Assembly (NCBI GenBank): GCA_937885075.1
Contig: CAKZYZ010000354.1
Coordinates: 1 to 47,775 of the forward strand
Length of the DNA: 47,775 nucleotides
Origin: an uncultured bacterium
GTDB taxonomy: Bacteria > Auribacterota > Erginobacteria > Erginobacterales > Erginobacteraceae
Direction of reading: 5' to 3'
The translations under genes were made by a program, and so were the position numbers. This document shows, in pieces, positions 6,075 to 41,502 of this stretch. The number at the start of each line of letters is the position of its first letter. Position 1 is the stretch's first letter. A model generated the notes under the pieces. That model made no database searches. It saw only the letters and a list, made by a program, of their open reading frames with translations, and was not told the DNA's origin.

Positions 6075-8566
6075 ATGACTCTTCAGTACCTTGGACAAAA
6101 TCTTTCCCGGCCTGACGCGTTTGACAAAATAACCGGGGCGGCCACTTATCTTGATGATATCCGCCTTCCCGGTCTTCTTCATATGGCGGTTCTCCTCCCT
6201 GAAGACGCGCACGCGATAATCCGTTCAATCGATGTAACCGAGGCTGAAAGGTCTCCGGGGGTAGTACAGGTGGTTATCGGACGTGATTGCCCATCCCGTC
6301 ATGGGATCGATTTTCGGGACCGGCGGCCGCTGGCGGTCGATCGGGTTCGCCACGTCGGTGAACCGGTGGCGGCGGTTATCGCTGAAGATGTCCGTCAGGC
6401 CCGTCTCGCCGTCCATAAGATCCGGGTTGAGTATGAGCAGTTACCGGTTTACACCGATGGACGCGCGGCCATGGCGGGTGGAGCTATCTTGATTCATCCG
6501 GAGACCGACCCGGAAGAGTATCCCGCCAGCTGGAATCATCTTCCCGGGACCAATATTGTCAATCATCAGGTACTGAAGAAGGGGAACCTCGATCAGGGGG
6601 TTGCCGATTCCGATATTACTGTCGAAGGTGAATTTAATTATCCGTTTTCCGTCCCCGGAGCGATTGAACCGCATGGAGCGATTGTCTGGTTTAAAGGGAA
6701 TGGGATAATTGAGGCGTGGCTCTCCTGTATCCGTCCCTTCATGGTAAGAAAAATGCTGGCTGAGATTTACCATCGGCCGGTAAGCTCCGTCCGGGTACAC
6801 GTCCCGGAGGTGGGAGGATGTTTCGGGGATAAATCCGGAACTCACTTTGTCTTTACGGTGGCCGCGGCGGCCAGCCGTATCCCCGGCCGGCCGGTTAAAT
6901 GGTTTGCTACCCGCAAAGAATCTTTTCTCTGCGGTTCGATCGGAAATGGGATCAGAACTCGTCTGAAGATCGGCGCTGATTCCAGAGGAAATCTCACCTT
7001 CTTTAAAGGAGTCGTCCATCACTCGGTAGGGGCATATTCTGACATAGGGAGCGGTGTGATGACAGCCGCCCTGGCGAATATCACGGGCCCGTATGAGGTT
7101 CCCAATTACCAACTGGAAGGATCTTGTGTCTATACCAATACGCCCCCGGTCGGGGCACTCCGCGGCTTCGGCAACCAGTCGGCCTTTTTCGCCACGGAAA
7201 GGCTGATGGATATGCTGGCAAAAAAATTGAAGATGAATCCGGTCCGCTTGCGGGAGATAAATCTTCCGCGAGCCGGTCAGGGGAATCATCCCGGTGACCT
7301 GGGGGATGTTGGTGGATGTGTAAGTATCGTTGCCGAGAAACTTTATCCCCGACCCAAGCCGGTTGAGGATGAATTGTATTTTTACGGGCGCGGTTTTTCC
7401 GTTCTTAGAAAAACCCCCGGTCCGACCGGATTCTACGGCCGGAGCTGTTATCTGAAATTCAATGGAGATGGATCCGTAACTTTAAATTTCGGAACAGTGG
7501 ATATGGGAGGGGGGCATCGCAATGCCATGCGCCAGATCGCGGCGGAAACGCTGCGGATCTCTCCGGAGAGGATTACGGTCTCCTCCGATATCGATACCCA
7601 GACATCTCCCTGGGAGTGGCAGACAGTGGGCTCGCTTTCGGTTTTACTCTGCGGGCAGGCGGTGGTCGAGGCCGCCGGGAAGGCGATTGAACTATTGAAA
7701 GAGACCGCCGCCCGGGTTCTTGGATGTCCATCGGGCCAGCTTAGCTAGACCTTACTCGAAAAGCCTTTTAAACCACGAAGAACACGAAGTTCACGAAGGA
7801 ATTTGAAGAAACAAAGGAAAATTCCATAGTTTTCTTTGTTTTTCTTCGTGTTCTTCGTGACCTTCGTGGTGAATATTTAGTTTTTTAGCACAGAATGTTA
7901 AAAATACCTTTTCGAGTACGGCCTAGCTACGATGGTGAACAGGTCTTCAAAACGTCCGATCCCGCGGTTCGGGTTCCAGTCGCCGGTCTGGCGCACGGTT
8001 TTCGCGATGAGTCGGGAAGGACGATCGGTGGTGAGATCCAGACCACATCAAATGTACATCTGGATAACCGGTTCCTCCCCGGTCGGGACGGAGGAGGACA
8101 GTTTGAATCAGTCTTTATCTATGGCGCCCAGGGGTGTGAACTGCGGATCCATAAGGAGACCGGGCGCGTAATCATCGATCACTTTATCTCGTCTTTTGAT
8201 GTGGGCCGGGTTATCAATCCCCAACAGATCCGGGGGCAGGTAACCGGCGGCGTGATGATGGCGCTTGGCGCGGCGTTGAACGAAGAACTGAAATTTGATC
8301 GACTGGGAAGACCCCTCAATCCATCCTTCGGCCGGTATCGCTTGCCGACTATCTCCGACGCGCCGCTCAGGCAGACGATTGAGTTTGTGGAGACCCCGTT
8401 AGAGATCGGCCCTTTCGGAGCCCGTCCGATCGGAGAGGGGACGGTGGTGGGAGTAACCCCGGCGATTCTGAACGCTATCGCCGACGCGACCGGAATCCAG
8501 TTCTACGATCTCCCGGTCACCCCCGACCGGATCAAGGCGGCCTTGAAAAATGCATCGGGATTTTGA
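6075..8566 (+). pseudogene. Second xanthine dehydrogenase family Mo subunit, interrupted by a MITE
   Basis: ORFs 6075-7748 (GGCFGDK, LRGFGNQ) and 7895-8566 (DVGRVINP, GQVTGG, GARPIGE) join in frame (..GQLS-YDGEQV..) when 7748-7929 (182 bp) is removed, giving 769 aa. Confidence 0.9.
7748..7923. mobile_element. 176-bp MITE-like insertion
   Basis: 16-bp TIRs GACCTTACTCGAAAAG / CTTTTCGAGTACGGCC (2 mismatches); TAGCTA duplicated at 7742-7747 and 7924-7929; internal 9-mer periodic hairpin CCACGAAGAACACGAAGTTCACGAAG...CTTCGTGTTCTTCGTGACCTTCGTGG. Confidence 0.9.
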
Positions 8567-11499: not shown

Positions 11500-12073
11500 A
11501 CAGTAAACAGTAAGCAGTAATCTGTGAGCGGTAAGCGGTTGGCCGAGCACCGTAGTGTTGATTTTACCGCTTACTGCTAACTGTTTACCGCTTACTATTT
11601 TTGACAGGACGATTAAGAAAGCAAAAAAACTTAAAGGCAGGACGATTACAGGCAGGACGATTAAAAAAGCAAAGAATTAAAGGCAGAATGATTACGGGCC
11701 CCGAATGGAATTAGGGGGGGACTTGAATGATTAAAAGATAGACTGATTAAAATTGGAATAAATATAGGCAGAATAACAATTGGGATGTTGTTTTAATATT
11801 TTTAAAAGCAGGTGCGAGGTGAGGCTAATCATTCTGCCCGTAATCATTCTGCCTTATAAGGGGCCGAGGTGGGGGGCAGTATAAAGACTGAACATCGAAC
11901 GTCGAACGCTCAACTTCGAACGTCGAACGAAAAGAGGCTGAGGCAAGGCATCAATTAGTGTGAATTAGTGTAATTAGTGGACTGCAAAGCCGCCAAGCCG
12001 AGGCGTAACAATCAGAGTAATCAGAGTAATCCGTGGACAAAAAGGGGCCGAGGTAGGGGGAAATAGTCCTGTC
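11488..12073 (+). repeat. Nested modular intergenic repeat array between the two permeases
   Basis: GTAAGCA 7-mer hairpin (11488-11597), GACAGGACGATT and GGCAGAATGATT arms, their inverse AATCATTCTGCC and AATAGTCCTGTC, TCGAAC and ATTAGTGTA/ATCAGAGTA modules separated by GCCGAGG linkers. Confidence 0.85.
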
Positions 12074-13010: not shown

Positions 13011-13465
13011 GAGGTAGAAGCAGGGAAAAGCAGGGAGAAGAACAACAAGTTTAAAGTGCCTAAAGTGCGCTAAAGTGCCTAAAGTTGTTCGCTTTCGCCT
13101 AGATTTCAGGCTTCTGGCTTCAAAGAAAATAGATACGAGACAGGGGATAGCGGAATGTCCAATATCCAACGGCCAATAACCAATCTCCAAATGCGAATGG
13201 CCAACATTGCAGGTGAATTTGGAAATCAACCTTCGCTAAATCCCCGAAACAAGTTCGGGATGCAAGCACTTTGGCGGACCTGTTGGAAATTCATTATGGG
13301 GCCGAGGGAGGGATTGGTAATCAGTAATCAGTGATCGGTAATCAGTCACCGGGTGGCTGAGTGTTCTTTTACTGGTAACCGATTACTGATTACTGATTAC
13401 TATCCTTTTAAAGGGGCCGCGGCAGGGGGGATTCTTGCGTATTTTGCGTCTTTTTGCGGCTAATA
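13011..13465 (+). repeat. Modular intergenic repeat array
   Basis: TAAAGTGCC 9-mers (13051-13086; inverse copy 21405-21440), CCAAT 7-mers, GTAATCA hairpin (13311-13405), linker and TTGCG module. Confidence 0.8.
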
Positions 13466-14689: not shown

Positions 14690-15070
14690 GAATATCCAAT
14701 GACCAATGTCCAATATGAAGGGATCGGTAATCAGTAACCAGTGATCGGTGATCAGTCAGCCGGGTGGCCAGGTGTTCTTTTACTGATAACTGATCACCGC
14801 TTACTGATTACTATCCTTTTGAAGGGGCCGAGGTAGGGGGATCAATCAGTGCAAATCTGTGTAATCCGTGGACAAAAAAAAGGGGGGGAGGTAGGGGGGG
14901 TAAATTAGTGTACATTAGTGTAATTAGTGGACTGCAAAGCCGCCAAGCCAAGGTGAAACAATTCGCGCAATTCGTGTAATTCGTAGTTCATTTAAGCGAC
15001 CGGCCGAAGCGAAACAATCAGAGTAATCCGTGTAATCTGTGGACAAAAAGAAGGGGCCGAGGTAGGGGGA
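14690..15070 (+). repeat. Modular intergenic repeat array including composite repeat copy 2
   Basis: 14719-14954 matches 2609-2842; further ATTCGTGTA and ATCCGTGTA modules; exact 20-mer AAGGGGCCGAGGTAGGGGGA at 14822 and 15051. Confidence 0.9.
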
Positions 15071-16684: not shown

Positions 16685-16945
16685 AGACAAGACGATTTAG
16701 GGACAGGACGATTAAAAGCAAAAAGAATTGTGGCAGGACGATTATAGGCAGGACGATTAAAAAGCAAAAAAACTTAAAGGCAGAATGATTACGGGCAGAA
16801 TGATTAAAAAGCAAAGGAATTAAAGGCGGAATGATTAAAAGAAAAATAATATAGCCCGAGGCGAGGCTAATCATTCTGCCCCAAATTATTCTGCCTTAAA
16901 AGGCCCGAAGTGAGGCAAATCGTCCTGACTGTAATAGTCCTGCCA
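16685..16945 (+). repeat. Nested inverted repeat array (CAGGACGATT outer arms, CAGAATGATT inner arms); empty GxxExxY-type site
   Basis: Tandem ~45-bp left units, then GCCCGAGGCGAGGC-TAATCATTCTGCC and GCCCGAAGTGAGGC-AAATCGTCCTG right arms. Confidence 0.85.
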
Positions 16946-17147
16946 TAAAAAAGGGGGTGAAGTGGGGGGAGAAGGATCAGAAAGTGACAACTTTAAATCA
17001 GGACAATTTTGGATATTGGGTATTGGTTGACTTCGCCAAGGATACGGCGGACAAGTTGAAAATTTAATAAGGAGGTAGTGAATGGTTTAGATGAAGTAGT
17101 ATTGTGATAAAATCGGGTTAAATGTCTAAACGAATGGAGGAGAAGTC

Positions 17148-23510: not shown

Positions 23511-25562
23511 TCAATGCCAGAGAAGATTCGCGGGGATCGGGCCTTCTTCCTCTCCCGGGGGGGCCCAGCGGACTTTCATGATCGCTCCCCAGGCGCTGTC
23601 GAAGTATTTTATCTTGATCCGGTGAAACCCCTGATCCAGCTTGATGGTATTGGATTCATATTTGATCCCGTGGGTTCCCCCGTTATTAACTACCAGCTGA
23701 TCGTCAATAAAGATCCAGGATCCATCATCCGATTCGGTGGCGAAGAGATATTGTCCGGTCCGCTCGATCTCTATCAGGCCCTCCCAGATGATGCTGAAGG
23801 GAGAGGTGATATTTAGTCCGGCTTTTTTCTCGTCCTCATTGTTGTAATAGAAGTCGAATTTACTCTCAGTCTTGACGAAGTTGGGCTTACCCACCGGGTT
23901 GATCTTCTTGAAGTACTTGGCTTTCAGACCCGGTTTCAGAGAAGCCTTGTCAACCTGAACCGGTTCGGTTCCTTTTATCTCCTCTTCCGGCTGCTTCCCT
24001 TTGTGGAGCCGGGTGTAGAGATAGAGGTCCAGTCCGGGCCGGACACTGTATAGTTCGGAATAGTAGGTATCTTTCAGAGTCTTTTCCAGCTCATCCTGGT
24101 TCTTGGTCCGACCCAGGACAATCGGAGCGTCGGAATCGTCGATAATCTTTCCCCAGTAACCGACGTGCTTATATTTTCTCAGATACCACTGGAGCGGCCA
24201 GTATTCATCGGAGACAATCTTGATCTCGGTATCGTAGCCCTGGGCCTTGCTATGAGCGTAATCCTCCAGCCGTTCCATCAGATCGTTGATGTCGCGACGG
24301 GTCTGGGAGTAGACAATCTGGTGGGAGTCATCGTCATATTCAATAAAATTTACCGTCCAGCTAATACCCGAGCCCCAGGCCAGGAGGACCACCGCGCCGA
24401 CCCCGGTCATGATTGATACCATGATCGTAGAACCCCGGACCGAACGGTAAACATTTTCTACAAAGAACCCGGCCAGCAGAGCCAGGGGGAGGATGAAATT
24501 CAGGGACAGCCAGGGGGTTTTATAGGGGACGGAGGAGTAGATGAAGAAGAGAATCACCGCCCAGAAGATGGTGAATACCGCGAAAGCGTTTCTTTTGATA
24601 AAAGCGTACCATCCTCCCAGTATCCCCAGAATAAAGATGGGGAGTTCATAATCCCGGAGGAGCCACCACCAGTACCAGAATGGTTTTTCGTGCCCGGCCC
24701 CCTTGGTCCCGGTCTTTTCCCAGATCAGAAGACTGTTGATCAGGTCGCTGGTGGTGCCCTTGGCGTTGGTAAAGAGAGAGGAGAAATAGACGGTAATGAT
24801 AAAGATGAAGACCAGCACCGCCAGCCAGACAAACTGGTAATGGGATTTCATCCAGTTCCCGATAGAAACTATGAGCTTTCGAGGAGCAAGTTCATTATTT
24901 TTTCGGGTGACCGAGAACCAGAAGTAGGTGCCGACCGCGGCCCAGAACCAGGCCGCCCCGGTCATGATGTAGGTTTCCTTGTTGGTGATCACCCAGGCCC
25001 AGCAGGCAGCCATCAGGATGAAATAGATCGGCTTCTTGGATTCCCAGAAACGGATCGCTCCGACAATTGTCCCCAGGGTGAAGAAAACCAGAAAAGTCTC
25101 GTGGATATTGGTTCGGGCGAAGAAGAGATTAGTGGGGGAGATCGCCAGAAGGAATCCCGCAGTTACCACCCCCACCCTTCCGATTTTTCTCCGCAGCGGC
25201 CAGAGCAGTCCGATTGTCAGAGAGCCGAAGAGGGCTACCATGCAGCGCAGCGAGAATATGCTCTCGTGGATGGAGAGCGGGATAATATCGGTAAAGAATA
25301 GAAAAGGGCCGTGATAGTTCTCCGGGTCGTATTTCCATCCGGTGGGAAAATCGGCTTTCAGGTTGAGTAAGAACCAGGAGTTTACTCCCTCGTCATGGTG
25401 GAGCGGTTTCAGTTCCAGGTCATAGAACCGCAAAAACGCACCCAGGCAGAAAGCCACCAGGAAGAGAATGGTGATAACATTCTTCGCCCGATTCCCCAGA
25501 ATGAAGACCGATCTGGTTGGGGGAGGGGGTTGTTTCTGTATTATTCGTTTCTTTTTTGTCAT
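23511..25562 (-). CDS. GT-C fold membrane protein (TIGR03663/Agl23-like) with C-terminal PA14 domain
   Basis: LHHDEG, YDP..YHGP, NKE, YKTPW, YWPL.WYLR motifs; PA14 signature F.TESDDGS.IFIDDQLVVNNGG.H. ATG 25562 preferred because the ATG at 25589 lies within the repeat. Confidence 0.85.
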   Translation of the reverse strand: MTKKKRIIQKQPPPPTRSVFILGNRAKNVITILFLVAFCLGAFLRFYDLELKPLHHDEGVNSWFLLNLKADFPTGWKYDPENYHGPFLFFTDIIPLSIHESIFSLRCMVALFGSLTIGLLWPLRRKIGRVGVVTAGFLLAISPTNLFFARTNIHETFLVFFTLGTIVGAIRFWESKKPIYFILMAACWAWVITNKETYIMTGAAWFWAAVGTYFWFSVTRKNNELAPRKLIVSIGNWMKSHYQFVWLAVLVFIFIITVYFSSLFTNAKGTTSDLINSLLIWEKTGTKGAGHEKPFWYWWWLLRDYELPIFILGILGGWYAFIKRNAFAVFTIFWAVILFFIYSSVPYKTPWLSLNFILPLALLAGFFVENVYRSVRGSTIMVSIMTGVGAVVLLAWGSGISWTVNFIEYDDDSHQIVYSQTRRDINDLMERLEDYAHSKAQGYDTEIKIVSDEYWPLQWYLRKYKHVGYWGKIIDDSDAPIVLGRTKNQDELEKTLKDTYYSELYSVRPGLDLYLYTRLHKGKQPEEEIKGTEPVQVDKASLKPGLKAKYFKKINPVGKPNFVKTESKFDFYYNNEDEKKAGLNITSPFSIIWEGLIEIERTGQYLFATESDDGSWIFIDDQLVVNNGGTHGIKYESNTIKLDQGFHRIKIKYFDSAWGAIMKVRWAPPGEEEGPIPANLLWH

Positions 25563-25667
25563 CAGGACTATTTGCCTCGCATTGGGCATTTTGACAGGAC
25601 CATTGCAGACAGGACTATTTGCTTCGCATTGGGCTTTTTGACAAGACCATTGCAGACAGGAATATTA
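25563..25667 (-). repeat. Downstream flanking array of the GxxExxY gene
   Basis: GACAGGACCATTGCAGACAGGACTATT units separated by GC(C/T)TCGCATTGGGC linkers; inverted relative to 26477-26627. Confidence 0.9.
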
Positions 25668-25676
25668 TTTACTTGT

Positions 25677-26474
25677 TTAAGGTCGGATTGTCCTCATTGT
25701 TAATTGTTGGCCTTTTAAGTTAATCCATTGCATAGCTTTTAGTGAAGTATTCACCAGAAAAAGTTGAAGTTGGTCTTTATATGACCTAATAGATTTTACC
25801 GAGGAGAGATGGACGGCAAGCTCTGGATTAAGGAGATTTACTTTTTGTGTTCCCAGAACAGTTCCTTTGTTTATTATCTCCACTTCTGCCGTAAATGCCT
25901 GCTCACCACCTCGAAAAAACTCGATAGCTTCACGATATAGAGCAATATCCAGGAACATACCCCAGTCGGAGATAAGACTGATTATAAATTCCCGCAACCA
26001 TATGCTATCTTGATCAATATCCTCCCAATCATCCTGATCTACTTTAAATCGCTCTCTATCCCGAGGAGTTAATGAAGTAGTTACAAATTCACTTTTCACA
26101 GAAGAAGTCCGCATACTCACCAGTTTCCCATATTGAAAATCGGTCAGGAAGAGATAATTCATAACCTGGCACCGGTGCTTAGAATTAAGAGACATCGTTG
26201 TCTTCAATTCATAAATAATGCGACGATTGATAATCAGGTCAATAAAGTATTTTTTAGAAAAATCCTGATACTTTACCTGAACCGGGACTTCCGCCTCAAC
26301 TTCCATCCCTGCTTCAATGCAGCGACTCATTATAGCTTCCTGATATATCTTTTCGTCAAAGAGTCGCCCCAGATCATTCTGAATAGAAAAAATAATCCCC
26401 ATTACATCATGATCAAGGTAATGATATTCATCCTTTGTCATTGCTTGAGGCTCAATTGAACAGTGAATAGTCAT
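25677..26474 (-). CDS. GxxExxY family PD-(D/E)XK nuclease-like protein with a degenerate second domain
   Basis: LGRLFDEKIY, EVPV.V.Y, IDLIIN..IIYELK, Q.MNYL, GKLV motifs; second half repeats the fold (WGMFLDIALY...QWINL) without the D/ExK residues; visibly more AT-rich than neighbours. Confidence 0.85.
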   Translation of the reverse strand: MTIHCSIEPQAMTKDEYHYLDHDVMGIIFSIQNDLGRLFDEKIYQEAIMSRCIEAGMEVEAEVPVQVKYQDFSKKYFIDLIINRRIIYELKTTMSLNSKHRCQVMNYLFLTDFQYGKLVSMRTSSVKSEFVTTSLTPRDRERFKVDQDDWEDIDQDSIWLREFIISLISDWGMFLDIALYREAIEFFRGGEQAFTAEVEIINKGTVLGTQKVNLLNPELAVHLSSVKSIRSYKDQLQLFLVNTSLKAMQWINLKGQQLTMRTIRP

Positions 26475-26476
26475 TT

Positions 26477-26627
26477 AATCGCCCTGTCTTCAAATCTTTT
26501 TGTCTTTTAATAGTCCTGTCTGCAATCGTCCTGTCTTCAAATCTTTTTGTTTTTTAATAGTCCTGTCTGCAATCGTCCTGTCTTTAAATCTTTTTGTCTT
26601 TACATAGTCCTGTCTTAAATCGTCTTG
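26477..26627 (-). repeat. Upstream flanking array of the GxxExxY gene (about three 47-bp tandem units)
   Basis: AATAGTCCTGTCTGCAATCGTCCTGTCTTCAAATCTTTTTGTC units fill the gap from the radical SAM stop to the nuclease start. Confidence 0.9.
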
Positions 26628-26629
26628 CA

Positions 26630-28054
26630 TTAATCCCGCTTCTTCATCCCGAATACTTTCAGTCCTGCTTTCGTTTTTCGTTTAAATTCGCCCCAGGACC
26701 GGACCTTGAGCATTTTTCTGATAATATAAGAAGGGCGAGTATAGAACTTCTTATAGGCGAAGATCAACAATTCTTGCAGTTCCCGGTCGGAAAAATTTTC
26801 ATTCCAATAAGGTGGATTAAAATCCGGGGTAGGATTTTTCGCGAACTCCCGCCAGTGATCTTTAGTGAAGACCCCTTCTTTCAATCCCCGGGTGTAGATC
26901 TCGGTGGCGGGGAAAGGACAGAGAATGGTAATGTGGACAAAATCCGGCTTTAATTCCAGCGAGAAATCTATGGTCCGCATGATATCCTCCCGGGTCTCAG
27001 AGGGAGAACCGATCATGAAATATGCCAGGGTCTCGATCCCCAGTTTCTTTGTCATCGCGACCGTCTCTTTGACCTGATCCAGTGTGATCCCTTTATTCAG
27101 AACTTTAAGTATCTTCTCCGTCCCCGCTTCCACCCCGTAATGAATCCGTTCGCAGTTCGCTTCTTTCAGTCTTTGGAGCAGTTCCTCATCCACGCAGTCA
27201 ACTCGGGCCCGGATATCCCATCCGATATCCAGTTTTCTTTTGATGATCTCATCGCAGACCGCCATAGCCCTCTCCCGATTGACGGTAAAAGTATCATCGT
27301 AGATCAAGAACTCCCGAATTCCGATCTCCACGCACTCCTCCATCTCGTCGACCACATTTTTCGCCGAGCGATAGCGGAACTGTTTTCCCAGATGGGGTCG
27401 GGCGCAGAAGGAGCAGCGAAATGGGCAGCCCCGGCTGGTGAACATGGTGGTAATCGGCTGCCGTTTGGCCATTACCGAGCTATACTTCCGGTAGGGAGAA
27501 AGCCGGCGGGCGGGGAAAGAGAGACTGTCCAGGTCCCCGCATAAGGGCGGAATGGGGTTCCTCCGGATTTCGTTATTATCAAGATAGGTCAGACCGGGGA
27601 CTTTATCCAGGGGGAGATTCCCTTCCAGTTGGTCGAGCAGTATAGCAAAGCTCTCTTCTCCCTCGCCGCTGATAACATAGTCGATATCCGGGAGGTTTAT
27701 GGTCTCGACCGGATAGAGAAAGGCGTGTACACCTCCCACGACTATGGGGATATCCGGAGATATCTCTTTAGCCAGGCGTGCGGTCTTCAGTACATCGAGG
27801 ATGGTGAAGGTCATGGCGGTCAGACCGATCAGGTCGGGTTGAGTGGTCCTGATCCGTTCTTTCAGATCGGAGTAGGAGAGTTCCTCCACCTGAGCGTCAA
27901 TAACCTCGACCCGGTGAGAGGAATGATCCTGGAGAAACCCGGCCAGATAGAGGAGTCCCAGGGGAGGGTTGTAGCCCCGGGCTTCGTCGATCAGGGCCGG
28001 GTTATTCCCGACCAGTTCATTCTCCCGGGGGGGGTTGATTAAAAGGACTTTCAT
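26630..28054 (-). CDS. B12-binding domain radical SAM protein (class B methyltransferase-like)
   Basis: PPLGLLYLA, VVGGVHA, GEGE, TSRGCPFRCSFC (CxxxCxxC), DDTF, YGVEAG, FMIGSPSET. Confidence 0.92.
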   Translation of the reverse strand: MKVLLINPPRENELVGNNPALIDEARGYNPPLGLLYLAGFLQDHSSHRVEVIDAQVEELSYSDLKERIRTTQPDLIGLTAMTFTILDVLKTARLAKEISPDIPIVVGGVHAFLYPVETINLPDIDYVISGEGEESFAILLDQLEGNLPLDKVPGLTYLDNNEIRRNPIPPLCGDLDSLSFPARRLSPYRKYSSVMAKRQPITTMFTSRGCPFRCSFCARPHLGKQFRYRSAKNVVDEMEECVEIGIREFLIYDDTFTVNRERAMAVCDEIIKRKLDIGWDIRARVDCVDEELLQRLKEANCERIHYGVEAGTEKILKVLNKGITLDQVKETVAMTKKLGIETLAYFMIGSPSETREDIMRTIDFSLELKPDFVHITILCPFPATEIYTRGLKEGVFTKDHWREFAKNPTPDFNPPYWNENFSDRELQELLIFAYKKFYTRPSYIIRKMLKVRSWGEFKRKTKAGLKVFGMKKRD

Positions 28055-35502: not shown

Positions 35503-35641
35503 TCCCCCAGATCTTATCCCTCGCCTTTGGCTTGGGCAACTTTAACAGCTTAGGAAATCATGAAATCAGGAAGTGATTCTCCCCCAACCTGCCCCCACTT
35601 ATGGGGCAGAACCATTGCCCCCACCTTCTCCCTCTTCTTAT

Positions 35642-35953
35642 GACAGGACCATTGCAGTCAGGACTATTAGCCTCGCCTCGGCCTTTATTTCTCTTTGCCG
35701 TTAATAGTCCTGTCTGCAATCGTCCTGTCTTAAGTCTTTTTCCGTTAATGGTCCTGTCTGCAATCGTCCTGTCTTAAGTCTTTTTGCCGTTAATGGTCCT
35801 GTCTGCAATCGTCCTGTCTTAAGTCTTTTTCCGTTAATGGTCCTGTCTGCAATCGTCCTGTCTTAATTCTTTTTGCCTTTAATGGTCCTGTCTGCAATCG
35901 TCCTGTCTTAAGTCTTTTTGCCGTTAATAGTCCTGTCTGCAATCGTCCTGTCT
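35642..35953 (-). repeat. Six tandem 44-45-bp units plus inverted arm; empty GxxExxY-type site
   Basis: CCGTTAATRGTCCTGTCTGCAATCGTCCTGTCTTAAGTCTTTTT(G) x6 from ~35698; inverted GACAGGACCATTGCAGTCAGGACTATT-AGCCTCGCCTCGGCC at 35642-35683. Confidence 0.92.
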
Positions 35954-41300: not shown

Positions 41301-41359
41301 TATATTCATTTGCAAAAGGATTAAAAATTTTTTAAAGGGACTGAGGCGATAAAAAAAAC

Positions 41360-41502
41360 GAATATCGAACCGCAGAATATCCAATATCGAATGTCGAAGT
41401 AAAAAAGCCAAGACAAAAGGCAACTTCGATATTCGGAGTTCGGTGTTCGATGTTCGATATTCTCTTTTTAATTCGCGAAGATTCGCGAGATTCGCGGTTT
41501 AA
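41360..41502 (+). repeat. 7-mer periodic hairpin plus ATTCGCG module
   Basis: GAATATCGAAC...ATGTCGAAGT / ACTTCGATATTC...GTTCGATATTC (41360-41462); GCGAAGATTCGCG..GTTTAA also at 5406-5424 and inverted at 33072-33099. Confidence 0.8.

Follow-up and report, generated by a model that had tools for sequence, protein, structure and literature searches.

The 47,775-nt contig CAKZYZ010000354.1 (assembly GCA_937885075.1; this whole stretch is called the window below) of an uncultured bacterium of the Erginobacteraceae carries a gene for a predicted GxxExxY/PDDEXK_3 nuclease that lies between inverted arrays of a short tandem subrepeat. We found that such inverted arrays, here called frames, occur without any gene at many other places in the genome, that each long copy of the nuclease gene is enclosed by one, and that the gene and its repeat family also go together in other phyla. 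Our favoured reading, to which we give about an even chance, is that the cassette supplies the protein in a partnership of gene and repeat, which may work like that between REPINs (hairpins of two repetitive extragenic palindromes, REPs) and RAYTs (REP-associated tyrosine transposases) but with an unrelated enzyme. The idea of a repeat-linked nuclease system had been put forward from the letters of the window alone (the sequence-only reading), and the comparisons described here lend it support.

Repeat arms of the cassette and gene-less frames

The array upstream of the nuclease gene (positions are those of the window; Table 1) was detected by Tandem Repeats Finder (TRF) at 26477-26624, with a period of 47, 3.1 copies and 92% matches, and its pattern matches lie at 26513 and 26560. 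Each unit consists of a doublet of the 10-nt subrepeat CAGGAC.ATT, with the two members 15 nt apart, and an A-rich linker, and the array stops 2-3 nt short of the nuclease ATG. The downstream array (25563-25666 by TRF; period 47, 2.2 copies, 92% matches) is made of units that, linkers excepted, are the reverse complement of the upstream units. Its last subrepeat abuts the ATG (25562) of the PMT_2/PA14 gene, which is likely to be the start of that gene as judged by the N-termini of relatives. Both arrays described in the sequence-only reading, 47-bp tandem units before the gene and inverted arms after it, were found, and both run up to the ATGs.

A 23-nt core of the repeat had 13 matches in the window at no more than 3 mismatches, against 0.00 expected from 100 shuffles. 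Three gene-less sites, also named in the sequence-only reading, were confirmed, all with the same order of arms, forward then reverse, and the arms were located at 35607-35950, 16704-16943 and 11605-12071. In the frame at 35607-35953, TRF detected a period of 45 with 5.9 copies and 95% matches at 35690-35953; its 34-nt loop is the A-rich linker plus GGCCGAGGCGAGGCT, and positions 35630-35780 are predicted to form, as single-stranded DNA, a hairpin of -31.5 kcal/mol (z -9.15). The frames at 16685-17010 and 11603-12073 are nested, with CAGGAC arms on the outside and CAGAAT arms on the inside. In the latter, other short-repeat modules follow the CAGAAT reverse arms, and a final AATAGTCCTG precedes the next ATG.

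Repeat family across the genome

In the source genome, the 23-nt core had 199 matches on 73 of the 434 contigs. Loci with at least 3 subrepeats numbered 108, of which 70 were forward-then-reverse, 18 reverse only, 16 forward only and 4 three-part; none of the 108 was reverse-then-forward alone. These frame loci, mostly extragenic, far outnumber the 3 long-type genes. In a typical gene-less frame, at least one 5' unit is followed by a 31-35-nt loop (A-rich linker plus GGCCGAGGCGAGGCT) and then by at least one 3' unit, every 3' unit having ATAAAAGGGGGTGAGGTAGGGGG after it; a conserved tail is often present as well. This tail closes many of the CAGGAC frames; it is about 45 nt long (...GTTTTAACAAGTAGAAAGTGACAACTTTAAATCAGGAC; window copy at approximately 16960-17000) and contains the motif GTGACAACTTTAAATC, found 32 times in the genome and 0 times in the reversed control. 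The tail can be read as TTAACA, 17 nt and TTAAAT, which would be a promoter-like pair facing the downstream gene.

The gene goes with its repeat within this genome

The genome contains 8 GxxExxY genes: 3 long, encoding 265 aa in the window (C354), 242 aa on contig C250 and 275 aa on contig C426, and 5 short. All three long paralogues have forward arms upstream and reverse arms downstream, and these arms belong to one repeat family. The five short genes are enclosed by inverted arms of other short tandem subrepeats, namely CGGATT, CACGAAG, CAGGAA-type and CACAGAT. Flanking inverted repeats with a score of at least 18 were present at 7 of the 8 GxxExxY genes, as compared with 110 of 3535 ORFs (open reading frames; 3.1%).

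Each paralogue type has its own subrepeat. The C354 and C250 genes, whose products share 80% identity, are flanked by CAGGAC.ATT only, with 9 forward copies upstream, 5 reverse copies downstream and no CAGAAT. The C426 gene (43% identity) has 11 copies of CAGAAT.ATT upstream and no CAGGAC there, and it is preceded by the A-rich half of the loop and followed by the G-rich half. At the nucleotide level, the C354 and C250 copies are 84% identical over window positions 25642-26580, i.e. the gene and the inner arms, and share nothing beyond. The C250 copy (G000:C250:4064-4859) differs from the window copy in a T run near codon 27, with the open frame beginning at residue 26 (242 aa); this may be either a frameshift or a sequencing error.

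Genes of other kinds occupy comparable positions in the same genome. Among 20 small ORFs framed by inverted repeats, 10 encode proteins of PF05635 (23S rRNA intervening-sequence protein, a four-helix bundle), on contigs C351, C122, C305, C160, C349, C273, C203, C340, C216 and C333 (e.g. C349:2502-2912); the genome has 15 PF05635 matches, 13 of them above the cut-off. Each framed PF05635 gene is enclosed by inverted arrays of a heptamer-like repeat of its own, and the repeat family goes with the similarity of the proteins: the C349, C273 and C203 genes (82-92% identity) all have AAGTGCCTAAAGT, the C122 and C305 genes (68%) have GTAAGCA and GTAATCG, and the C333 and C340 genes (57%) have TCGAA-type repeats. 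One DUF6788 gene likewise lies in a frame.

Filled sites, empty sites and decay

The radical SAM and PMT_2 genes that border the cassette in the window are adjacent, without the cassette, in five relatives of the same family and order (G005, G006, G004, G001 and G013; 5 loci, confirmed by tblastn). The spacers there are about 30-250 bp long, versus 1067 bp in the window, and contain unrelated hairpins, some also made of short tandem repeats. The neighbours of the C250 copy are adjacent without the cassette in G003, G002 and G005. Filled and empty forms, as postulated by the sequence-only reading, are therefore represented by the orthologous sites of both the window copy and the C250 copy.

Degraded copies retain the frame. 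In G005, two loci that are near-identical (96-97% over 2 kb) have each lost the interior of the gene but are still framed by arrays; codons for aa 1-50 are joined out of frame to those for approximately aa 198-263, and the two loci have 5 and 1 upstream units. On contig C17 of the source genome, a mini-copy beside a short-type gene keeps only the gene ends, in the same frame. Of eight public sequencing runs, none of them recorded as RNA, four containing the stretch were compared, as contigs only. In one of them both flanks were covered and the gene was not, with no contig joining across, which is not evidence of absence.

Distribution in the phylum and in other phyla

The comparison within the phylum comprised 79 genomes, including the source genome (G000). 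A search of the 79 genomes found full-length long-type homologues (36-44% identity) only in G061-G064, members of another family; intact long-type genes in the phylum are thus those of G000 and G061-G064, with up to 4 copies per genome. The flanks in G061-G064 contain the related subrepeats GCAGGACTATT (14 copies), GGCAGAATAATT and CAAAATGATT. The doublet pattern CAGRAYNATT-N4-7-CAGRAYNATT was found in 7 of the 79 genomes, with 254 matches in G000, 84 in G064, 74 in G062, 16 in G063, 10 in G061, 9 in G005 and 9 in G002; the other 72 had 0 matches, and the reversed control gave 0-1. The seven are the five genomes with an intact gene, G005 with its gene remnants, and G002, a close relative. Repeat abundance, which the sequence-only reading expected to depend on the gene, is not independent of it, all five intact-gene genomes being among the seven. 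Since the pattern genomes fall in two lineages, they represent few independent events.

In two species of one genus (loci L030, G064:C31, and L031, G062:C366), a long-type cassette has the same location, where it separates the genes for the small and large subunits of a xanthine-dehydrogenase-type enzyme, and the arms there differ: GCAGGACTATT x14 in one and GGCAGAATAATT x2 in the other. For the short-type GxxExxY loci of other genomes of the phylum (L035-L058), flanking inverted repeats with a score of at least 16 were detected at 8 of 19 testable loci. The subrepeats of these loci, ACAGGAT, CACAGAT or CGCAGAT, resemble the long-type motif.

A scan of species-representative genomes across phyla, with an alignment of 4 sequences as query, yielded 80 loci at 29-47% identity. 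By their NCBI titles these come from metagenome-assembled genomes (MAGs) of KSB1, Calditrichaceae, Thermodesulfobacteriota, Ignavibacteriales, Kiritimatiellales, Victivallales, Verrucomicrobiota, Planctomycetota, Acidobacteriota and others. Two 300-bp flanks were tested for inverted repeats at a threshold score of 16 (shuffle maxima 9-14), and 54 of the 75 loci with enough flank reached it. The anchored motif CA-R-R-A-N-N-A-T, counted in 2 x 250 bp of flank at 65 aligned loci, occurred at least 3 times at 56 of them, and motifs of the same orientation were spaced by 15 nt in 122 cases and by 16 nt in 40. The commonest layout, at 19 of the 65 loci, is the gene within a split hairpin (forward arms before and reverse arms after the gene, F|R), and the remainder, beyond this layout and that with a complete hairpin on each side (FR|FR), are mixtures. 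Thus homologues are flanked by cognate repeats well beyond the three long paralogues of the source genome, both in the phylum at 36-44% identity and elsewhere.

The protein tree has two clades, each with 100% SH-aLRT support, which coincide with the base at position 8 of the motif: T/C (29 rows) or A (27 rows), the 9 rows with fewer than 3 motifs being left unlabelled. Motif class changes once on this tree, compared with a mean of 19 after shuffling, and 0 of 500 shuffles were as low. Subclades also have finer motif variants in common. This two-clade match, together with the subrepeat proper to each paralogue type, is in line with the co-variation of protein clade and repeat family for which the sequence-only reading had proposed a search. 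The cognate pattern was dispersed in 4 of 5 tested genomes of other phyla (294, 55, 37, 16 and 0 matches; reversed control 0).

The predicted nuclease

Residues 21-128 of the 265-aa protein match PF13366 PDDEXK_3 (E 1.2e-24, 87.4 bits, cut-off 22) and TIGR04256 GxxExxY (E 8.9e-23, 80.9 bits, cut-off 35). The gene has a GC content of 38.6%, whereas the window as a whole has 49.9% and the genes on either side have 51.6% and 51.9%, so that its earlier description as an AT-rich GxxExxY gene of the PD-(D/E)XK type holds. With 265 aa, the protein exceeds the usual GxxExxY size (about 120-160 aa, single domain). The long form accounts for 531 cluster representatives at E <=1e-30; among the best 150 of these, 142 have a length of about 250-285 aa and the other 8 of 206-340 aa. 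The GxxExxY/PDDEXK_3 profile as such finds 11,714 cluster representatives at E <=0.001. Judged by similarity and length, the long form is a distinct subfamily of its own.

The residues G36, E41, I43, D79, E89, K91, Q103, Y107, G172 and N252 are invariant in 65 sequences. They include the catalytic set E41, D79, E89 and K91 (E, D, ExK), which lies entirely in the N-terminal half, a PD-(D/E)XK domain. An AlphaFold2 model (pLDDT 96.8, pTM 0.90) shows the same order of elements in both halves, i.e. helix, helix, three strands, helix and two strands. Alignment of the halves by hhalign was colinear over 101 columns (P 0.0013), with GRFFDEKIY aligned with WGAFLDxxLY, and the C-terminal half is without the catalytic residues. 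These similarities suggest that the two halves are probably an internal duplication. Foldseek gave PD-(D/E)XK nucleases as its best matches, with Cas4 SSO0001 (E 4e-4) first, followed by a second Cas4, AdnA, MGME1, lambda exonuclease and the tandem nuclease CinB, all at low TM-scores (0.2-0.4), and a search of PDB by sequence profile gave nothing below E 0.1.

A proposed gene-repeat partnership, and the alternatives

The observations could be brought together as follows. The gene sits in the loop of a hairpin-forming frame whose arms are arrays of a 10-11-nt subrepeat spaced by 15-16 nt, and would encode a two-domain nuclease that is active in its N-terminal half and degenerate in the other. 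We suggest that i) the nuclease recognises the paired subrepeats on both arms, ii) it cuts DNA, rather than RNA, within or near the loop, iii) a filled frame acts as template for repair, with homology provided by the repeat arrays, and the gene is so copied into other frames, and iv) the same cutting and repair may expand, contract and spread the gene-less frames. The fixed spacing of 15-16 nt between 10-11-nt motifs across phyla, together with the two-domain protein, suggests that the doublets are recognised directly. Binding, cleavage and repair-mediated copying are inferred here from the comparison of sequences.

Several observations weigh against this partnership. 1) G002 (88% complete) has 9 pattern matches, and no gene was found in it with the long-type query. 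2) In the scan across phyla, 21 of 75 loci fell under the inverted-repeat threshold, 9 of 65 had fewer than 3 anchored motifs, and one Pirellulaceae subclade has a different motif. 3) At 9 of 65 loci there is a complete hairpin on each side of the gene (FR|FR), a poor fit to the simple logic of an insertion that splits its target. 4) The agreement of tree and motif is a single change and statistically weak, since kin are not independent. 5) No target-site duplication was identified at the ends, which are variable-number tandem arrays; a duplication would be unreadable because the neighbouring genes of the relatives are only 66-77% identical and other hairpins occupy the empty sites. 6) Five joints in the public runs that skip 867-934 bases were considered as excision at the locus and rejected, since they carry the loop sequence of gene-less frames and thus originate from paralogous frames. 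7) The frames keep parts other than arms, namely A-rich and G-rich linkers with GAGG motifs and the promoter-like tail; in 29 of 35 called frames (a further 5 being ambiguous), the linkers have their purine-rich strand in the direction of the co-directional neighbours, and only 3 of the 70 forward-then-reverse frames lie between divergent genes. Such conservation and orientation bias could mean a host role or a role at the RNA level that is independent of the nuclease. 8) PF05635 proteins, which are unrelated four-helix bundles without a known nuclease motif, occupy analogous frames, so that nuclease chemistry may not be what spreads the frames.

The main rival, clearly less probable in our estimate than the partnership yet of real weight, is homing into frames spread by other means: the gene would encode a homing endonuclease of the free-standing kind, living as a parasite on repeats that were there before it, the loops of the frames would be harmless landing sites, and the protein would have no part in spreading gene-less frames. 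This would explain why the gene occupies precisely the loop of a frame that is common without it, as seen from the loop halves on either side of the C426 gene, and why F|R, in which an insertion has separated the arms, is the commonest layout (19 of 65). The numbers, 3 gene copies versus 108 frame loci, agree with it, and so do the conserved linkers, tail and orientation bias, which suggest that frames have a function of their own, and the unrelated hairpins found at the orthologous intergenic sites of relatives even where there is no cassette. However, homing predicts frame-rich genomes that lack the gene, whereas 72 of the 79 genomes have no pattern match and the two without an intact gene have 9 each, versus 10-254 in those with it. 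The motif also follows the protein across phyla, which is easier to understand if both travel together, and complete hairpins on either side of a gene leave the supposed target intact.

We consider it unlikely, and less probable than either the partnership or homing, that the system works at the RNA level in the manner of an intervening sequence. The frames would then be transcribed hairpins with a processing, stabilising or insulating role in operons, and the protein would bind or cut RNA hairpins, including its own, with cleavage of the stem releasing or regulating the gene. The frames do lie mostly between co-directional or convergent genes, with the purine-rich strand as the sense strand in 29 of 35 called; the cassette has no adjacent promoter or terminator on its strand; its arms are predicted to form an RNA stem that encloses the ORF; PF05635 genes, of a family named after the 23S rRNA intervening sequences, lie in like frames here; and a tRNA-splicing endonuclease is among the weak fold matches (rank 41). 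The best fold matches, however, are DNA nucleases (Cas4, AdnA, MGME1 and lambda exonuclease), and the window has no Rfam match at gathering thresholds. A conserved G-G mismatch between the arms, as read from the letters, is no wobble pair, and an action on RNA alone would leave the filled and empty sites, the 84%-identical copies at unrelated loci, the low GC content and the decay series unexplained.

A third alternative, very improbable in our judgement, is that fragile or recombination-prone hairpin frames passively capture small foreign genes without any recognition, the link of protein and repeat being shared genome ancestry: two unrelated families (GxxExxY and PF05635) and one DUF6788 gene do occur in frames, and kin share both proteins and repeats, so that tree and motif could agree through inheritance, but passive capture predicts neither the related 10-11-nt motifs, mostly 15-16 nt apart, that flank the gene in KSB1, Calditrichaceae, Thermodesulfobacteriota, Verrucomicrobiota, Planctomycetota and Acidobacteriota MAGs, nor two paralogues of one genome each with its own subrepeat, nor the invariant catalytic residues.

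Comparison with known systems

RAYT genes are themselves flanked by REPs. REPINs are two inverted REPs, non-autonomous and replicated by single-copy RAYTs, BIMEs (bacterial interspersed mosaic elements) are regularly spaced REPs in alternating orientation (PMC3337134, 10.1101/2022.05.22.493013, PMC2817692), and REP palindromes have a conserved GTAG or CGTC tag at one end (PMC3733652). The partnership proposed here resembles REP/REPIN-RAYT systems in having few enzyme genes and many short, extragenic, hairpin-forming repeats of one family per genome, in the flanking of the gene by inverted cognate repeats, and in the co-occurrence of gene and repeat family across genomes; inverted repeat pairs and composite mosaics with regular spacing are likewise shared with REPINs and BIMEs. 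It differs in the enzyme, which is PD-(D/E)XK rather than an HUH/Y1 transposase, PDDEXK_3 being the sole Pfam match above cut-off, with no Y1_Tnp. The arms also differ from the single short palindrome of a REP: they are arrays of 10-11-nt subrepeats at 15-16 nt with defined A-rich and G-rich linkers, and they open with GACAGGAC or GGCAGAAT, no GTAG or CGTC tag being seen in the examined frames. Moreover, up to 4 gene copies are present per genome, unlike the single-copy RAYTs. No mention of PDDEXK was found in the papers on REPIN, RAYT or REP that were searched.

The cassette is also separate from a RAYT-like gene with its own REP in the same genome. At G000:C219:8777-9343, an ORF of 188 aa matching Y1_Tnp (IS200-like) is flanked by the palindrome CGTTGTAGCCGCGGTCGGTGACCGCGGAA, which recurs on C57, C86 and C287; by these features it is likely to be a classical RAYT-REP pair.

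Free-standing homing endonuclease genes, whose products cut alleles in which the insertion site is unoccupied, include that of the PD-(D/E)XK homing endonuclease I-Ssp6803I. With such genes the cassette has in common a small nuclease gene, filled and empty forms of the site, separation of the halves of a symmetric site, and a foreign base composition. Unlike them, its target would be a repeat present about 100 times per genome rather than a single conserved host gene; it travels with repeat arrays, some loci have complete hairpins on both sides, and there is no intron or intein context.

The stem of a 23S rRNA intervening sequence is excised by RNase III. PF05635 is a family encoded within these intervening sequences (PMC3936711). 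Like them, the cassette is a small ORF enclosed by inverted repeats able to form a long stem and is sporadic among relatives, and PF05635 genes of this genome occupy the same type of frame. In contrast to them, it lies between protein-coding genes and not in rRNA, its ORF is a nuclease, its stems are made of tandem subrepeats, and gene-less copies are dispersed.

IR/DR elements (inverted repeats containing direct repeats, e.g. Sleeping Beauty) and the ends of Tn7 and Mu have several binding sites per terminal inverted repeat, and transposons can have derivatives of the MITE (miniature inverted-repeat transposable element) kind. The frames resemble such ends in being inverted, each with at least 2 directly repeated short sites at fixed spacing, and resemble MITEs in that internally deleted, gene-less forms outnumber coding copies. 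Unlike those transposons, the cassette has no DDE, serine or tyrosine recombinase, and its ends, at which no target-site duplication was identified, are open-ended tandem arrays of variable number (5 versus 1 unit in the two near-identical G005 loci).

Two other known arrangements were considered and rejected. A CRISPR array does not fit, the stretches between subrepeat doublets being conserved themselves, with whole units matching at 92-95% and no unique spacers. An integron cassette (attC/IntI) does not fit either, there being no integrase among the 30 window ORFs scanned and the repeats occurring as arrays on both sides of the gene instead of as one imperfect palindrome after it.

The locus and other features of the window

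The coordinates of the cassette, its neighbours and the gene-less frames are given in Table 1. The surrounding cluster is polysaccharide-related, with GT2, six PMT_2 proteins, Wzz and Poly_export in a Pfam scan of the window ORFs. The sequence-only reading had placed the nuclease gene between two glycan genes; this applies to the PMT_2/PA14 side, which is polysaccharide-related, but not to the other neighbour, a B12-binding radical SAM protein and not evidently a glycan gene.

Table 1. Positions in the window of the nuclease cassette, its neighbouring genes and the gene-less frames
Feature	Position	Strand	Remarks
Gene-less composite frame	11603..12073	plus	CAGGAC and CAGAAT forward arms, 133-nt centre, CAGAAT reverse arms
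Gene-less nested frame	16685..17010	plus	CAGGAC forward, CAGAAT forward, loop, CAGAAT reverse, CAGGAC reverse, tail (...AGTGACAACTTTAAATCAGGAC)
PMT_2 plus PA14 protein	23511..25562	minus	Downstream neighbour of the cassette; Pfam
3' arm array	25563..25676	minus	2.2 inverted 47-bp units: AATAGTCCTGTCTGCAATGGTCCTGTC with GCCCAATGCGAGGC-type linker
Long-type GxxExxY/PDDEXK_3 gene	25677..26474	minus	265 aa; ORF list, profile matches
5' arm array	26475..26627	minus	3.1 tandem 47-bp units, up to the nuclease ATG
B12-binding radical SAM protein	26630..28054	minus	Upstream neighbour of the cassette; Pfam; adjoins the PMT_2 gene in relatives
Gene-less frame	35607..35953	minus	Six 5'-type units, 34-nt loop, one 3'-type unit and a degenerate one

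A scan for promoters and terminators gave no convincing candidate next to the cassette on its strand. Without a promoter or terminator of its own, and on the same strand as its neighbours, the gene probably depends on read-through transcription of the host operon. Folding of the sense RNA is predicted to enclose the ORF between paired 5' and 3' arms, in the minimum-energy structure as well as in the centroid one, and such pairing would keep expression down. Transcription by read-through and a low level of translation are accordingly what these predictions lead us to expect. No match to an integrase or recombinase family was found among the 30 window ORFs scanned, the window had no match in Rfam at gathering thresholds, and PADLOC matched no defence family. 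The nuclease had no match in phage records, and in plasmid records only 3 partial matches, all of the short type.

Repeats of other families are also present in the window. Between ORFs 6075-7748 and 7895-8566 lies a hairpin of the CACGAAG family (7748-7895; AACCACGAAGAACACGAAG ... TTCTTCGTGTTCTTCGTG). The two ORFs are parts of one xanthine-dehydrogenase-type large subunit, the first matching positions 44-147 of the MoCoBD_2 profile and the second positions 188-283, and the repeat seems to interrupt a coding gene. In the window, most intergenic regions contain inverted arrays of other 7-10-nt tandem repeats (2613-2827, 13317-13401, 14722-14932, 41359-41496 and others), including GTAATCA/TTACTGA, CGAATAT/TTCGATA and AATCAGTG. 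The G-rich linker AAAGGGGCCGAGGTAGGGGG, often on the 3' side, is common to several repeat families. Elsewhere in the genome, the last ~200 bases of contig C88 resemble a sequencing adapter followed by a poly-A-rich stretch and are probably an artefact.

Implications

For PF13366, a table row in one source gives the function as 'Unknown' (PMC3424549), and no functional account of GxxExxY was found in the literature searched. There, too, no link was found between GxxExxY/PDDEXK_3 and repeats, in a search that did not extend to supplementary files or subscription journals, so that an earlier description is possible, nor between PF05635 or other four-helix-bundle proteins and intergenic repeats. 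The linkage of one subfamily to a defined DNA motif at fixed spacing provides the GxxExxY/PDDEXK_3 family with a first candidate substrate that can be tested.

A broader generalisation may be offered tentatively, as something we think rather less probable than the partnership itself: GxxExxY and PF05635 proteins could be unrecognised partners of short-tandem-repeat intergenic hairpins in many phyla, each subfamily reading its own 7-11-nt subrepeat. This would amount to an evolvable code, with doublets 15-16 nt apart for the two-domain nuclease, and to a large class of intragenomic symbionts, each a gene with its repeat, parallel to REPIN-RAYT, older and more diverse, of which the 23S rRNA intervening sequences would be a special case.

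If the partnership proposed here is real, persistent dispersed families of hairpin repeats in bacteria would arise by routes besides REPIN-RAYT, and many intergenic tandem-repeat hairpins that are so far unexplained, and that interrupt assemblies and affect operon structure, would have an origin. The partnership would also be relevant to the way in which cassettes resembling intervening sequences arrive between and within genes. The nuclease itself, as a compact two-domain protein whose specificity apparently shifts with a 10-nt motif, would be of interest as a sequence-reading scaffold.

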